Source of the DNA: Eledone cirrhosa
Lineage: Eukaryota
DNA: 64,000 bases
NCBI GenBank assembly: GCA_964016885.1
Contig: OZ024743.1
Coordinates: forward strand, 352,656,001-352,720,000
Reading direction: 5' to 3'
The notes under the pieces were generated by a model, which saw only the letters and a list, made by a program, of their open reading frames with translations, had not been told where the DNA came from and did no database searches. A program made the position numbers and the translations under genes. Below, piece by piece: positions 14,911 through 48,242 of the stretch. The first letter of the stretch is position 1. The number at the start of each line of letters is the position of its first letter.

Positions 14911-15944
14911 TACATATATATACATACATGTATACACATATACAAACACACGCACGCACATACACTCAGATTTAGTGAGATAGACAGGAAATACAAATTC
15001 CATTAAAATGATGTGTGTAGAAATGTGGTTTTATGTTCATTTATCATTCTTCTAGTTCAAAGTTCAGTGAAGTAAAAAATAAAATAAAATACTTTTCTGG
15101 GAAGTCGGAGGACAAAAGAGATTAGTTTGCAACACACCATTAATAAAGAATAAAAATGGCAACCTTACAAACCATTCTAGGTTGTAAATTCAGAAACACA
15201 GTCCATTTCCTACATACTACCAAGAGCGCAGTTAGAATTACAATCCATATCCTATGCAGTACCAATAGTACAGTTAGAGTTACAGCCTAGTTCTTTTGGA
15301 GGGGATTGGGGTAGAAACAACTTTCCAGACAAACTACACTCCAGCATCAGGTCACTATGAATGTCAGAGGAAAAAACCTTTTATATTTGCAAACATAACA
15401 ATCTGTATGCCACAGACATACAATCCATCAAATAACTTGAATAACTTTTAACTGAAACATCTAAAAATGTAAAAAGCCAACATGTACAATAGAGTCAATA
15501 AAGAAGTACAGTGATTAGTAACAAATTTACAGATATAAGGAAACACAGAATACCTAGTAATGTTACAACCATTTGTAACATCGAAAAAAGCACAAAAAAA
15601 TATCTTAAGTACAGACTGATCAATCCAATAAAGAGTGAAATAGATGTAGTGAGCTGAAACAAAATCATAGAAGTTAACTTCAAAGTTAGCTAAATGGCAA
15701 GATTAATACAATGAAATAATAGTACCTCCATCATTGACTGGTACAATGAAAATAACAAAAACTCAGATAAATTCATATAATTCAACATAAGAAAATCTTA
15801 AGTGTTGACTGGAAAATATTTCCTAATAAAAGCGATAGACTTTACAAAAGTATTCATTATTATTAACAACCAAACAATAAGCCTAATAATGCACTTGAGA
15901 AAGTCCCTTCTATTTTATGATGGAATTTTACCTTCCATAAAGAA

Positions 15945-25522: not shown

Positions 25523-28500
25523 TAAATAATCTTCTCCTTGTTAACTACCCCATACCCCTCCCTCCCGCCCCCACCTTTATTATTTGAACCAATCACAAGT
25601 CAACGGCCTATGCTATCACTTCTAGTTGCTTTTCGATATGATGGATGGACTAAGGAATTTCTGGAGAGTCTGAAGAATCTGGACACTCGAAGACAATGCC
25701 AAAGATAATGACAAATTCACCTCATGCTGACGAAAGGGCAAGGCCCCCTCCTCTTTGTTGCGGCCGCGGATGGCCAACATAACCCAAACCCCATCCCCCC
25801 CACCCCTTCCTGCGCCCCACCCACCAAACGCAATCCAAAACTTCAGAGTTGGTACCATGAATGTAGGCACCTTAAAAGGCCGCTCTAACGAGGTTGTAGA
25901 AATGCTTGAACGTAAGGAGGTTGATGTTTGCTGTATCCAAGAGACCAGGTGGAGGGGCGGGTCTGCTAGATTCATTGTGGGTAAAAAACGATGCTATAAG
26001 TTTTTCTGGGTGGGAAATGACAATGGGCTGGGTGGGGTAGGAATCATGGTAGCAGAAAAATGGGTGGATAAGATAATAGACATAAAAAGAATGAATGACA
26101 GAATAATTAACATAAGACTTGTTCTAAATGGAACTACTGTGACAGTAATATCTGTGTACGCGCCCCAATCCGGACTGCCTCGCAATCACTTTATCACCTA
26201 CAGATCAGAGGAACATACCAGCCAGTTAGATTATATCCTTACCAGAAGACGTGACAGAGTGTCTGTTGTAAACACTAAATCCTTCCCCCATGAAGAATGC
26301 ACCTCCCAACATAGACTGATAATTAGCAACCTCATAGTCAGGACGAGACGTACTAGACAGCAGAAGAGGACAATCCTCAGGAGAAAAATATGGAAGCTAG
26401 AAATAAATTTAAAAGCATATTACTTGATGCTTTTGACAGTAAGGAAGAGCATTTAGAGTCGTACAATATAGAGGAACAGTGGGAATTCCTGAAAGCAAAC
26501 CTGCTGATGGCGGCAGACAAAATCTGTGGCTGGAGCAGGCCTATAGGCAGGAGGAGAGTAACATGGTGGTGGAGGAGTCAATTAAGGCCAAAAAGCAGGC
26601 TTGGAACGTATGGCGGGATGGGGGAAGTAGAGAAGACTATCAAGTGGCCAGGAGGGAAGCTAGGAAACGAGTGTACTTCGCAAGAAGGGAAGCAGAGAAA
26701 AGAAAGTTCAAGCATGTTCTACAACGCGAGGACCAAAAACATGAGGTGTTCAGGATTGCTAGGCAATGTGTCAAGGAAAACCGTGATATTGTCGGCGAGA
26801 AGTGTGTACTTAATGATGATGGTGTACTTGCTATCACTGACGCTGATAAGAAGGTAGCTTGGAAGTGTCACTACGAAAGGCTACTAAATGAGGAGAATAA
26901 ATGGGAGAAAGACAGTCTCCCCCACATCGACCCAATAGAGGGACCAGCAGTGTTAGTCGAAGGTAGTATAATAAGTAAGGCAATCAAAGATATGAAGACG
27001 GGTAAGGCGGCTGGGCCTTCGGAAATAGTTGCTGAAATGCATGAAAGCTTCTGGAACAGTGGGACACACCATGGTCACCCGGATAGTAAACCAAGTCATA
27101 CAGAATGAGGTTGTTCCGAAGGACTGGCATAGCAGCATCATCATTAACTGCTTCAAGGGTAAAGGAGATGCCCTAGATAGGAGTAACTATAGAGGCATTA
27201 AATTAATTGACCAGGTCATGAAGGTCACAGAAAAAGTAATAGCGCAACTAATCAGAGAGAGAATTGATCTAGATGAAATGCAGTTCGGGTTTGTGTCAGG
27301 CAAAAGTACCACAGACGCTCTTTTCATTGTACGACAACTACAGGAGAAGTACCTAGCTAAAAGTAAACCCCTATACTTAGCTTTTGTCGACTTGGAGAAA
27401 GCCTTTGACAGAGTCCCCCGTTCCATTAGATGGTGGGCTCTTAGAAAACTAGGTGTTGATGAATGGCTTGTGAGAGCTATACAAGCCATGTATAAAGAAA
27501 CAGTCAGCAAGGTTAGAATTAACAACGAATATAGTAAAGAGTTTAGCGTAAAAGTTGGTGTTCATCAGGGCTCCGTTCTTAGCCCCCTACTATTTATTAT
27601 CGCCCAAACATGGAAGCATGGCCTAGAATCAAAAGGCCTTAAAATTAACCTGTCTAAGACTAAAGTTCTAGTTTGTAGGAAGGAAAATAGGGCGCCGGTC
27701 CCATCCGGGAAGTGGCCATGCTCAGTGTGTAGGAAAGGAGTAGGTAGAAACTCCATTTTATGTCCCAAATGGAAAGTATGGGTGCATAAAAGATGTAGTG
27801 GGATCACAGGTAAGCTAACTAAGAACATAGATTTTATATGTGGCCGGTGCTCTGGTGCAATAAGTAGCAGCAAGTGCCCACAGAATACTAGCTCATTCCA
27901 TTGCACAGATGGTTCTATAGAAATAGTGGACAGCTTCCATTACCTTGGTGACAAAATCAGCAGTGGGGGAGGGTGCTCTGAAAGTACAGTAGCTAGAGTC
28001 AGAACTGGATAGAAAAAGTTCAGAGAGCTTATACCACTATTAGCCGCTAAAGGGTTCTCCCTAAAAATGAAAGGCAGGCTGTATGATGTCTGCATACGAA
28101 CAGCAATGTTGCATGGCAGTGAGACCTGGCATTGTGTGCAGAGGATATACGCAGACTGGAGAGGAACGAAGCTTGCATGCTCCGCTGGATGTGTAATAGT
28201 AATATACGTGAACGGCAAAGCATAAACGAACTAAGGGAAATTTTAGAAATAAGAGGGATCAGATGTTGTTTACTCGAGAGAAAGCTACGTTGGTATGGTC
28301 ACGTGATGCGCATGAAAGACGACAGCTGTATAAAAAAGTGCAGGGCAATAAAAATAGACGGTAGCCACGGAGTAGGCAGACCCAGAAAAACCTGGGACGG
28401 CTTGATAAATTCCGACCTCACACACTTACACGTCTCCAAGACAATGTCACTGGACCGAGAGCTTTGGCGCTACACAGTAATAGAGAAGACCCGCCTTACC

Positions 28501-38175: not shown

Positions 38176-38584
38176 AAGATAATCTCAAGTAGTTTGATAT
38201 GGGAAAAGGCTTATTTTTTCAAGTCAATATCATTTTTTATTTTTTTAAATTTTTTAAATCGCTTTCTTTTCTTTTTTTGCATGCTTACATGGGTTGGACA
38301 GATCTTCTCTAGCAAAAGGGTGAATGACATTTCACCCAATAAGGTGCTCACACCTGTGTATTACCCTATAACCCAGTGGTACTCAGAGAACCGGTTCCCT
38401 TGTAATCCCATGTTTCTTCAATACCTGTCCCATTTTGAATTGTCATCTAGTAATTTTTCACTCAACTACAACATTAACATAAGCAAGCTTTTCAAACCTC
38501 AATAATTGTATAGTCCCAAATGGAATTAAGTCTGAAGCAGCTCTTTTTTAACTGAACTGTTAATTTGCAATCACATTTGTAGTA

Positions 38585-39505
38585 GGCTATATTGGTATTT
38601 CATTTGATATATACACAATATACACTATAGTGGGGTATATTGGTATTTCATTTGATATATACACAATATACACTATAGTGGGGTATACTGGTATTTCATT
38701 TGATATATATACAATATACACTATAGTGGGGTATATTGGTATTTCATTTGATATATACACAATATACACTATAGTGGGCTATATTGGTATTTCATTTGAT
38801 ATATATACAATATACACTATAGTGGGGTATATTGGTATTTCATTTGATATATATACTATAGTTGGGTATATTGCTATTTCATTTGATATATATACAATAT
38901 ACACTATAGTGGGCTATATTGGTATTTCATTTGATATATATACAATATACACTATAGTGGGGTATATTGGTATTTCATTTGATATATATACTATAGTTGG
39001 GTATATTGCTATTTCATTTGATATATATACAATATACACTATAGTGGGGTATACTGGTATTTCATTTGATATATATACAATATACACTATAGTGGGCTAT
39101 ATTGGTATTTCATTTGATATATATACAATATACACTATAGTGGGCTATATTGGTATTTCATTTGATATATATACAATATACACTATAGTGGGGTATACTG
39201 CTATTTCATTTGATATATATACAATATACACTATAGTGGGGTATACTGGTATTTCATTTGATATATACACAATATACACTATAGTGGGGTATACTGGTAT
39301 TTCATTTGATATATATACAATATACACTATAGTGGGGTATACTGGTATTTCATTTGATATATACACAATATACACTATAGTGGGGTATACTGGTATTTCA
39401 TTTGATATATATACAATATACACTATAATGGGGTATATTGCTATTTCATTTGATATATATACAATATACACTATAGTGGGGTATATTGGTATTTCATTTG
39501 ATATA
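38585..39505. repeat. 48-bp minisatellite, about 19 copies, with two 39-bp variants
   Basis: Unit GGGTATATTGGTATTTCATTTGATATATA(C/T)ACAATATACACTATAGTG; contains the palindrome CACTATAGTG. Confidence 0.97.
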
Positions 39506-39513
39506 TATATATA

Positions 39514-39750
39514 TACTTTATTTCACATTGCTCCAGTTTACTCAGCTGTAGAAATGAGATGATAGGGACTGGAGTCCCTATCATTCCACTGGAAAGTGGT
39601 CGTGGAGGTGCCACGGCAAAAAAGCACCCAGCACTCACTGTAAATGAGGTTGGTGTTAGGAAGGGCATCCAGCTGTAGAAATCAAGCCAGAATCAATTCC
39701 CGTCCCACCCTTGCAAGCAGGGAAAAGCTGACGTATGATGATGATGATGA
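39514..39750 (+). mobile_element. SINE family B, 5'-truncated
   Basis: Near-identical to 14675-14910. Confidence 0.85.
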
Positions 39751-42427: not shown

Positions 42428-42810
42428 AAGTGGAGGTGAGTATTACACCATTTTCACTTTGGAGTTGAATATTACACCAGTTTCACTTTGGAGATGAATA
42501 TCACACCAGATTTATTTTGGGGGTGAATATCACACCAGTTTCACTTTGGGGGTGAATATCACACCAGTTTCACTTTGGGGGTGAATATTACACCGGTTTC
42601 ACTTTGGGGATGAATATCACACCAGTTTTACTTTGGGGGTGAATATCAGACCAGTTTCACTTTGGAGGTGAATATTACACCGGTTTCACTTTGGGGGTGA
42701 ATATTACACCATTTTCACTTTGGAGATGAATATCGCACCAGTTTTACTTTGGGGGTGAATATCATACCAGTTTCACTTTGGGGGTGAATATTACACCGGT
42801 TTCACTTTCA
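42428..42810. repeat. 29-bp minisatellite, about 13 copies
   Basis: Unit GGGGGTGAATAT(C/T)ACACC(A/G)GTTTCACTTT, head-to-tail with no spacers. Confidence 0.95.
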
Positions 42811-46337: not shown

Positions 46338-46424
<87 letters not shown>

Positions 46425-46596
46425 TTAACACAAATCAATATATTTGATAAACAAATCCTCATATTTATGTATGTATTGTAAATGACCAAGTTAGCTAGAT
46501 AGAAATATACTAATAATAATATTACAGTTTGCCTATCATGACTTAAGATAATACATCATAAATCAACAAAAACAAACTGTATTGGCAATGGCCGTG

Positions 46597-46725
46597 GTGC
46601 TTGGACAAATTTAAATTTCAAAATCAAACCTGTTCCGTAGGCAGGTTTAAACCTAAAAATCCAAATATGTTTCGAATAATGAAAAAGTGGAAGGAAGACC
46701 GCATTTTGATCTCCTCAGCAAGCAC
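46597..46725 (-). ncRNA. Type-I hammerhead ribozyme (left arm)
   Basis: Mirror copy of 47337-47465. Confidence 0.72.
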
Positions 46726-47336
46726 TATAAAAATTGGTATGTTCCACTTCAAAATATTTAGGAAGACTGTTTAACGCACGAGGTAACCTCATGCGGTTAT
46801 CCAGTGTCTAGCTAGCCACATACTCGTGCTGCTAGAAATAACAGCCGTTTGTATGGGGCTAAAATCAGCTCAACGAAGGAGCAGTGTAAAATCAATAATA
46901 ATAAGTTCAAATCTCAGGCGATCATTTACAATGAAATAGCTCGAAGAAAGACTATTCTGAGCCGTGTAATATAGGTTAACACAAATCAATATATTTGATA
47001 AACAAATCCTCATATTTATGTATGGTCATTTACAATACATACATAAATATGAGGATTTGTTTATCAAATATATTGATTTGTGTTAACCTATATTACACGG
47101 CTCAGAATAGTCTTTCTTCGAGCTATTTCATTGTAAATGATCGCCTGAGATTTGAACTCATTATTATTGATTTTACACTGCTCCTTCGTTGAGCTGATTT
47201 TAGCCCCATACAAACGGCTGTTATTTCTAGCAGCACGAGTATGTGGCTAGCTAGACACTGGATAACCGCATGAGGTTACCTCGTGCGTTAAACAGTCTTC
47301 CTAAATATTTTGAAGTGGAACATACCAATTTTTATA

Positions 47337-47465
47337 GTGCTTGCTGAGGAGATCAAAATGCGGTCTTCCTTCCACTTTTTCATTATTCGAAACATATTTG
47401 GATTTTTAGGTTTAAACCTGCCTACGGAACAGGTTTGATTTTGAAATTTAAATTTGTCCAAGCAC
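47337..47465 (+). ncRNA. Type-I hammerhead ribozyme (right arm); predicted cleavage after C47458
   Basis: Helix I GTGCTTG/CAAGCAC; core CTGAGGA (47344-47350); G...C-closed helix II; GAAA (47389-47392); long helix III CATATTTGGATTT..AAACCTG/CAGGTTT..AAATTTAAATTTG; GTC triplet at 47456-47458. Confidence 0.72.
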
Positions 47466-47615
47466 CACGGCCATTGCCAATACAGTTTGTTTTTGTTGAT
47501 TTATGATGTATTATCTTAAGTCATGATAGGCAAACTGTAATATTATTATTAGTATATTTCTATCTAGCTAACTTGGTCATTTACAATACATACATAAATA
47601 TGAGGATTTGTTTAT

Positions 47616-47675
<60 letters not shown>

Positions 47676-48242
47676 CATATCAGTCCACACTGTAAAGTGG
47701 TCATGCTGGTGTCACGACAAAAAGCACCCAGCCTACACTGTAAATGTGGTTGGCGTTAGGAATGGCATCCAGCCATAGAAACCAAGCCAAAATTAGTCCT
47801 AGTATGAGCAGGACACTGTTATCTGATCTAGCTTGTCTCACAATGGGACAACTCATCTAACCCATGCTGGCATGGAAAAATTGACATTAAACACTAATGT
47901 TGATGATGATATATATATTATATATATATATTATTTATATATAAATATGATTTATCAAAACTCTTGGATGATTTGAAATGTGAAATGTGGGAATCCAAAC
48001 TAACTGTAACAAGTCGGTCACTATCAATAATAGCATTATAAAATCAGGTACAATACCCTTAGTGATAGGCTAGTCGCTGCTGGTCACTTTTTTCTGACCC
48101 TAAGAATATTTTACCTGATATTATAAAGCAATTATTATTTATAACAATCAACTGTTGTTACAATTATTTTCTGCATTTGGATTCCCACATATATATATAT
48201 CTATGAGTATGTGTGTGTGTGTGTGTATATATATATGTTTAT

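Follow-up and report, generated by a model that had tools for sequence, protein, structure and literature searches.

The insertion at 46418-47624 of a 64,000-nt stretch of the Eledone cirrhosa genome (contig OZ024743.1; the whole stretch is hereafter called the window) is in our view, with a probability of about 0.6, a young copy of a retrozyme whose RNA is predicted to form a 551-nt circle and which was likely pasted into a (TA)n tract by a Penelope enzyme of the Hydra clade. The palindrome is one young head-to-head insertion of a 551-nt unit devoid of ORF and named family A. On its testable features, this unit is a non-LTR retrozyme, i.e., a non-autonomous Penelope-dependent element, for which self-cleavage and a circular RNA are predicted.

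Organization of the insertion

The region forms a near-perfect inverted repeat inside a TA microsatellite (Table 1). The inverted arms (46382-47024 and 47038-47680) are 98% complementary and separated by 13 nt. Outside the TA repeats, they differ by a single base, 47159, in 551 compared positions (99.8% identity), and the nearest other sampled copy is 1.3% diverged from the window copy. In agreement with the preliminary description, which had reported a palindrome with direct repeats of period 551, each arm contains an exact direct repeat with that period, of 56 nt in the left arm (46418-46473 = 46969-47024) and of 51 nt in the right arm (47023-47073 = 47574-47624). The longest ATG frame on the circularised unit encodes 47 aa, which bears out the claim that the monomer has no long ORF. 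Each half had also been described as one monomer plus 50-55 bp. This holds for the window copy but not as a general layout, since arms in the families range from less than 100 nt to 2713 nt, in a sample whose loci were chosen by similarity and whose arm lengths are therefore biased upward. Nor do the two halves repeat a single monomer layout, as they are different permutations of the unit: the left arm (607 nt, minus strand) runs from unit position 15 through 551 to 70 and the right arm (602 nt, plus strand) from position 0 through 551 to 50. The 3′ ends of both arms point out into (TA)n, their 5′ ends meet with a 2-nt overlap and each arm carries one hammerhead. The right-arm 3′ end, at 166, is atypical and was probably produced by later trimming at an internal ATATAT.

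The 99.8% identity of the arms would also suit an assembly or fold-back artefact. Such an origin is extremely improbable, because neither arm could have obtained its sequence order from a single fold-back of the other, varied junctions and a fixed end rule characterize 76 other head-to-head insertions, and the arms of older insertions have diverged.

Table 1. Features of the insertion and of its target, in window coordinates
Feature	Position	Strand	Remark
(TA)n target, left side	46341-46422		
Left arm, 1.1 units	46418-47024	-	3′ end at the family near (S) RT start site, 186 nt past the predicted cut
Left-arm hammerhead	46597-46725	-	Mirror image of 47337-47465
Right arm, 1.1 units	47023-47624	+	3′ end 166 nt past the predicted cut; the S site lies 20 nt further on
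Head-to-head arm junction	47023-47024		2-nt overlap
Single 551-nt unit	47024-47574	+	34% GC, no ORF above 47 aa
Internal S site (47093), then GCTC...GAGC hairpin	47093-47124	+	
Internal far (L) site (47171-47175), then GCTCC...GAGC hairpin (47180-47194)	47171-47194	+	Hairpin identical to that of H2 at 15/16 positions
Most conserved motif of families A-D	47215-47230	+	13 invariant columns
5′ flank predicted to pair with loop II	47312-47332	+	Putative pseudoknot or off-state helix
Type I hammerhead	47337-47465	+	Predicted cut after C47458
(TA)n target, right side	47619-47680		

Elsewhere in the window, a frameshifted LINE with endonuclease and RT pieces, which we take to be RTE-like, lies at 25731-28012 (plus strand), a decayed Hydra-type RT fragment at 15613-15921, and minisatellites of 48 nt x 20 and 29 nt x 13 at 38580-39516 and 42431-42808, respectively. 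A LINE endonuclease fragment is present on the minus strand at 845-1483, and near it, at 2078-2156 on the plus strand, a weak HDV-like ribozyme match scores 31 bits (E 0.07), below the gathering threshold of 44. Rfam microRNA matches on the window were rejected, as they derive from the palindrome centre and microsatellites.

Unit families and copy number

A search for family A in its own genome (3.0 Gb) returned 2099 candidates, including tandem and partial-tandem copies, hence the monomer has other genomic copies, on which the preliminary description had made its proposal depend; the best 40 of the 2099 were scored and gave full-length matches with 92-100% identity. Sister families were found in the flanks of family A copies, namely B (518-519 nt, 1415 candidates), C (567 nt, 947 candidates), D (about 548 nt, 2844 candidates), F (522 nt, 2112 candidates) and E, a single copy. 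At least five sister families of 519-567 nt share the family A layout, A to D being mutually 61-72% identical where compared. Across families, the longest ATG frames encode 26-56 aa and the GC content is 31-35%. Circular folding, a check proposed beforehand for the unit, gave structures more stable than those of shuffled sequences (20 each), with z of -7.4 for A and of -2.0 to -6.8 for the others.

Two insertions were found in 60 evenly spaced 10-kb stretches (600 kb), which corresponds to roughly 10^4 copies per genome for all families together, with a wide margin (Poisson estimate of roughly 1,200-36,000). The top copies of B and C are 97-100% identical to their queries, implying that the group was recently active. 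Units are repeated head to tail at exact periods of 551, 518-519, 567, 548 or 522 nt, for up to 4.8 turns and with nothing between them. Most loci hold just one or two units, and 35 of 251 arms cross the hammerhead (cut site) at least twice. The copies, their tandems and the covarying ribozyme described below agree with the initial reading of a multi-copy, ORF-less hammerhead retroelement.

No published description of the family was found in the literature searched, a scope to which Repbase, Dfam, subscription papers and supplements do not belong, and ribozyme terms are absent from the main text of a 2026 paper on Octopus vulgaris repeats. Three sequencing runs from one sample, of a kind that is unrecorded, contain many variant pieces of the unit and no joints, and have no bearing on expression.

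Architecture and conservation of the hammerhead

The position, the motifs and the predicted cut of the type I hammerhead core announced by the preliminary description stood, but the helix II included in it comprises just 2 bp. In the window copy, stem I has 7 bp (47337-47343/47459-47465) and is followed by the core (47344-47350), a 2-bp stem II closing a 34-nt loop II (47353-47386), GAAA at 47389-47392 and a stem III of about 28 bp (47392-47457). Across families, stem II has 2-3 bp, loop II 30-65 nt and stem III is long. The Rfam hammerhead models, which had been recommended for verification, matched neither the window, searched with E values up to 1, nor the element, searched with E values up to 10, so that this variant of the hammerhead escapes Rfam.

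Covariation was assessed on an alignment of eight representatives of families A to D, family F being left out because its short stem III is unalignable. In this alignment, 224 of 232 cells are paired (96.6%) and both sides have changed in 10 of the 29 pairs (6/8 for stem I), whereas none of 500 shuffles scored as high and slid controls reached at most 50%. Among the pairs that changed on both sides is C3-G8 of the core, present in families A, B and F and replaced by U3-A8 in C and in most D copies, a swap reported to be natural and active in hammerheads (PMC3088659). The core is thus conserved and covaries among copies, two properties on which the preliminary description had made its proposal depend, and the hammerhead is, on this alignment, under selection across families. 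The hammerhead region alone folds no better than shuffled sequences (z -1.0, 28/200), and its lowest-energy fold hides the core in a rival hairpin. A pile-up of 5′ ends at the cut was considered as a trace of in vivo cleavage and set aside as too weak (5/248 at +1/+2 versus 1.6 expected locally, p ~0.02).

Each family has its own sequences for a complementarity between loop II and the strand immediately 5′ of stem I. The duplexes have energies of -11 to -23 kcal/mol and surpass dinucleotide shuffles in all eight representatives, for which 0-14 of 300 shuffles did as well. Over its first 5-7 bp, the pairing is consistent with the activating pseudoknot of hammerheads with a 2-bp stem II, and it runs on to about 20 bp, leaving 7-14 nt to return to stem II. 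Hence loop II likely pairs with the 5′ flank to form an activating pseudoknot over the first 5-7 bp, while the return of just 7-14 nt raises the prospect that the full helix is possibly an off state. The predicted pairing is weakest in family A, and the window variant at 47365 weakens it further.

The same (TA)n tracts harbor other hammerhead elements, found in the flanks of L123, L129, L148 and L107, at L045, L047 and L024, at L032:600 and L144:901, and at L069 and L070; they include minimal types with a palindromic stem III and two further U3-A8 cores.

Two preferred 3′ ends in (TA)n

The ends of 253 arms from 210 loci were mapped on five circularised units. The 3′ ends cluster at two homologous sites per family, 70-85 nt apart, which are located, in nucleotides from the predicted cut, at 186 and 264-268 in family A, 176 and 242-250 in B, 165 and 238 in C, 172 and 257 in D, and 187-191 and 276 in F. 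Out of 250 3′ ends, 106 fall at the near site, 110 at the far site (216/250 at the two sites) and 34 elsewhere, and TA follows 202 of them. The 5′ ends are scattered. A GCTC...GAGC hairpin lies within a few bases past each end site. Both ends are at preferred sites in 51 of the 76 head-to-head insertions, and these combine a near with a far end in 50 cases and two far ends in one; the other 25, the window copy included, have an atypical end.

In a family A inversion junction at L007:2748-3062, a 36-nt piece is present five times at the hairpin of the far site, which suggests repeated slippage of the RT at this hairpin. In the window, conserved TT/GTAA, CTRAY-like and TTTCTAG motifs at 47128-47230 could mark a 5′ intron of the Penelope type, ~97 nt long, or else serve as binding sites for proteins.

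Fixed 3′ ends with an optional tail, variable 5′ ends and an inverted second arm make up a Penelope-type layout. Since inverted truncated ends with a tail at one end are the standard layout of Penelope elements (PMC8557442), and since just the best 40 candidates per search were scored, the unit might be a truncated pLTR (terminal repeat) belonging to a Penelope element with coding capacity that is still to be found. This interpretation is nevertheless highly improbable, and already largely excluded, given that units follow one another at exact head-to-tail periods, uninterrupted over as many as 4.8 turns, and that no arm adjoins a Penelope frame of the same orientation unless TA lies between them. 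The preliminary description had itself envisaged that the copies could be the ends of an already catalogued Penelope family; no coding frame was found in the unit or collinear with it in the loci examined.

One template per insertion

The origin of the successive turns was addressed with 63 subfamily-diagnostic sites. Within an arm, consecutive turns were concordant in 235 of 237 diagnostic comparisons (134 expected at random), and the two arms of an insertion were so in 387 of 404 (228 expected), with the reservation that the diagnostic sites are linked, so that the counts are not independent, and that conversion between inverted arms could add agreement. In contrast, non-diagnostic differences (233 sites in 18,774 turn comparisons) are found in single units. 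Two variants common to both window arms occur in none of the 51 other arms that span the positions concerned. Among junctions whose two anchors both lie within 30 nt, 220 of 225 passages through the cut site are of exact length, and 208 retain GTC. Subfamily alleles fill every turn, whereas mutations acquired later affect individual units; this combination implies a bottleneck of one monomer, of which a ligated circle is the simplest form. The single haplotype per insertion fits one circular template, as well as a homogeneous array, and divergence within arms compared with that to the nearest copy does not, on its own, separate the circle from the array. A circular template was proposed in PMC4209133 and PMC7229834, the former making no mention of octopus.

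The main competing explanation keeps Penelope mobilization and replaces the circle by an uncut linear multimer transcribed from a tandem locus, the hammerhead cutting rarely or serving another step. In the anole system, hammerhead mutants left Penelope insertion in vitro unchanged and uncut RNA was the main template (PMC11167929), and 8 of 9 Xenopus dimers did not cleave (bioRxiv 10.64898/2026.07.22.740005). In the present genome, arrays of up to 4.8 units are possible sources and the long helix between loop II and the flank could hold the ribozyme off; the existence of arrays of 4-5 units in H1, the candidate helper presented below, together with the uncut anole template, keeps linear multimers in play. 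A multimer would, however, have to be reconciled with new mutations confined to single units when alleles are common to all turns (235/237), with loci that mostly hold one or two units and with a ribozyme that covaries across families. On balance, it is doubtful, and the circular template is preferred.

Candidate helpers

Three autonomous Penelope families of the genome share the (TA)n target: H1, H2 and a family presumably Neptune-like, a label that we base on its zinc-finger linker. H1 has an array period of 3531 and frames of 784 codons between stops, many of them identical and intact, and more than 100 identical-scoring copies are present among the best 150 of 71,866 candidates. An array of 3531-bp units with four intact 784-codon frames is found at L241-L242 (G000:C1:437198500-437216000). 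The H1 frame contains DKT, a CxCx5C linker, and CxxC and CxH around E and N, lacks CCHH and has RWR in place of RWK. H2 has a period of 3254 and intact frames of about 713 codons, and it is 54% identical to H1. In the atlas, the neighbors of both are animal HTH/GIY-YIG clusters. Pfam gave a sub-threshold GIY-YIG match for the Neptune-like frame and nothing for the Hydra frames. From these motifs, this identity and these neighbors, H1 and H2 are placed in the Hydra clade, and H1 is a very young family of a clade described mainly from cnidarians. The Hydra-clade criteria used for H1 are those of PMC8557442.

Both families behave like the units at their ends. H1, which forms arrays of 4-5 units and carries a U3-A8 hammerhead, has 3′ ends 83 nt apart that run into (TA)n, and the ends of H2 are 88 nt apart, likewise into (TA)n. 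Two-armed copies combine the near and far ends in 28 of 28 views of H1 and 14 of 15 of H2, a few views having been seen twice. A GCTC...GAGC hairpin lies past the far site in both, and that of H2 is identical to those of A and D at 15 of 16 positions. Moreover, the 35 nt past the far site of A and D match their H2 counterpart better than any of 1288 other H2 windows; family B shows this match weakly (22 of 1288), and C and F do not show it. H1 matches none of the five families in sequence, its likeness being one of hairpin shape only, and profile searches revealed no overall homology of the unit to H1, H2 or the Neptune-like family. At L051:690-819, an H2 arm and a family B arm, both ending at their far sites, directly abut head to head and overlap by 4 nt. 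This is the sole cross-family junction without TA among the 24 listed, and a nested insertion with a deletion would look the same.

Taken together, a helper from the Hydra clade is quite probable, and the chances that it is H2 or a close relative are about even. Another (TA)n-targeting Penelope family, e.g., the Neptune-like one, or several enzymes could play this role instead. The Neptune-like family is abundant (46,138 candidates), has a small hammerhead and two 3′ ends about 60 nt apart at (TA)n, C and F have no sequence match to H2, and many further Hydra families are seen as fragments only. Such a helper is unlikely all the same, as the unit tail of 70-85 nt fits H1 and H2 (83 and 88) better than about 60, the far-site hairpins recur in H1 and H2, the best Neptune-like copies are 80-92% identical to the query with stops in many of them, and H2 is directly joined to family B at L051. 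The Hydra-clade helper is thus retained.

Two further observations concern these elements. In H2 (L286-L288), CAGAAGA occupies the position of the hammerhead core just before the near end, possibly as a U4A variant or a dead ribozyme. A pseudoknotted hammerhead at the H1 stop codon in L117 turned out to be a junction artefact.

Proposed mechanism

A copy of more than one unit would first be transcribed and, as suggested by the retrozymes of coral, mussel and axolotl, the hammerhead would cut once per unit and a host ligase close the monomer. The Penelope protein would then bind the two hairpins past the start sites, which are observed ~80 nt apart, and, like the anole Penelope protein, presumably nick both strands of the (TA)n tract. 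Each broken end would prime at a different site of the same RNA, a chemistry proposed from the observed use of one site per arm and the single haplotype. Each cDNA would run round the template for a variable length, as the arm lengths indicate, before the two cDNAs are joined head to head at short overlaps such as those seen at the junctions.

A fuller version of this scheme is put forward tentatively, and is less likely to hold than to fail. In this version, a viroid-sized RNA circle parasitises the Hydra-clade enzyme by mimicking its two RT-start hairpins, an enzyme dimer primes both (TA)n ends at different sites, both subunits roll round the circle, and the loop II helix serves as an off switch in the circle. 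If true, it would name a retrozyme-helper pair with a mapped rolling-circle twin-priming mechanism.

Relation to known elements

Like the metazoan non-LTR retrozymes (Cervera and de la Pena 2020, PMC7229834; Li, Clavereau and Pollet 2026), the unit is ORF-less and low in GC and occurs in tandem or partial tandem with one type I hammerhead each. Penelope-like helpers and a circular template are proposed for them in PMC7229834 and bioRxiv 10.64898/2026.07.22.740005, as they are here; for animal retrozymes, the mobilizing enzyme and the circular template have the status of proposals in these sources and in PMC4209133. The preliminary description considered the unit longer than known animal retrozyme monomers. 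With 551 nt, it exceeds the 170-400 nt of PMC7229834 but falls within the 51-972 bp of the monomers in bioRxiv 10.64898/2026.07.22.740005, where one of nine dimers showed cleavage, hence the length is not what is new. The unit differs by its hammerhead (stem II of 2-3 bp, loop II of 30-65 nt, stem III of ~28 bp), by dispersed two-armed (TA)n insertions where the known retrozymes form long satellites, and by two mapped start sites and a named candidate helper. The pseudoknotted hammerheads of Perreault et al. 2011 (PMC3088659) share with it a 2-bp stem II, a Watson-Crick pseudoknot fixing stems I and II and natural U3-A8 pairs, but their reported pseudoknots have 4-6 bp, compared with the ~20 bp of complementarity found here.

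Like the unit, the Hydra-clade elements of Craig et al. 2021 (PMC8557442) target (TA)n, occur as tandem as well as inverted copies, bear a tail at a single end and contain a hammerhead. Those of the Eledone genome add the tail length, the near-plus-far rule, the hairpins past the sites and, for H1, the U3-A8 core, whereas the unit carries no frame and shows no overall homology to either family that could be detected, and the H1 start sites lie 19 and 102 nt past the cut, compared with 165-280 nt in the units. In the anole Poseidon element PAc (Frangieh et al. 2024, PMC11167929), the tail is likewise delimited by two internal start sites, each DNA strand is nicked and then extended, a dimer is predicted and the binding region lies downstream of the start sites. 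However, PAc is autonomous, its tail is 30-40 nt and the strands showed no difference in start site in vitro, whereas the arms of the unit almost always use different sites. Compared with this literature, the hammerhead architecture, the near-plus-far rule with a single haplotype and the putative sequence link to a Hydra-clade helper are what distinguishes the unit.

Significance

The hammerhead variant described here may show how a circle avoids being cut again, a point left open in PMC7229834. The near-plus-far rule, common to the units, H1 and H2, provides a concrete model for the inverted Penelope insertions that are tailed on one side. Finally, young families with two mapped start sites coexist in one genome with candidate helpers that are intact, so that the question of the helper and the template of retrozymes becomes an in vitro experiment.
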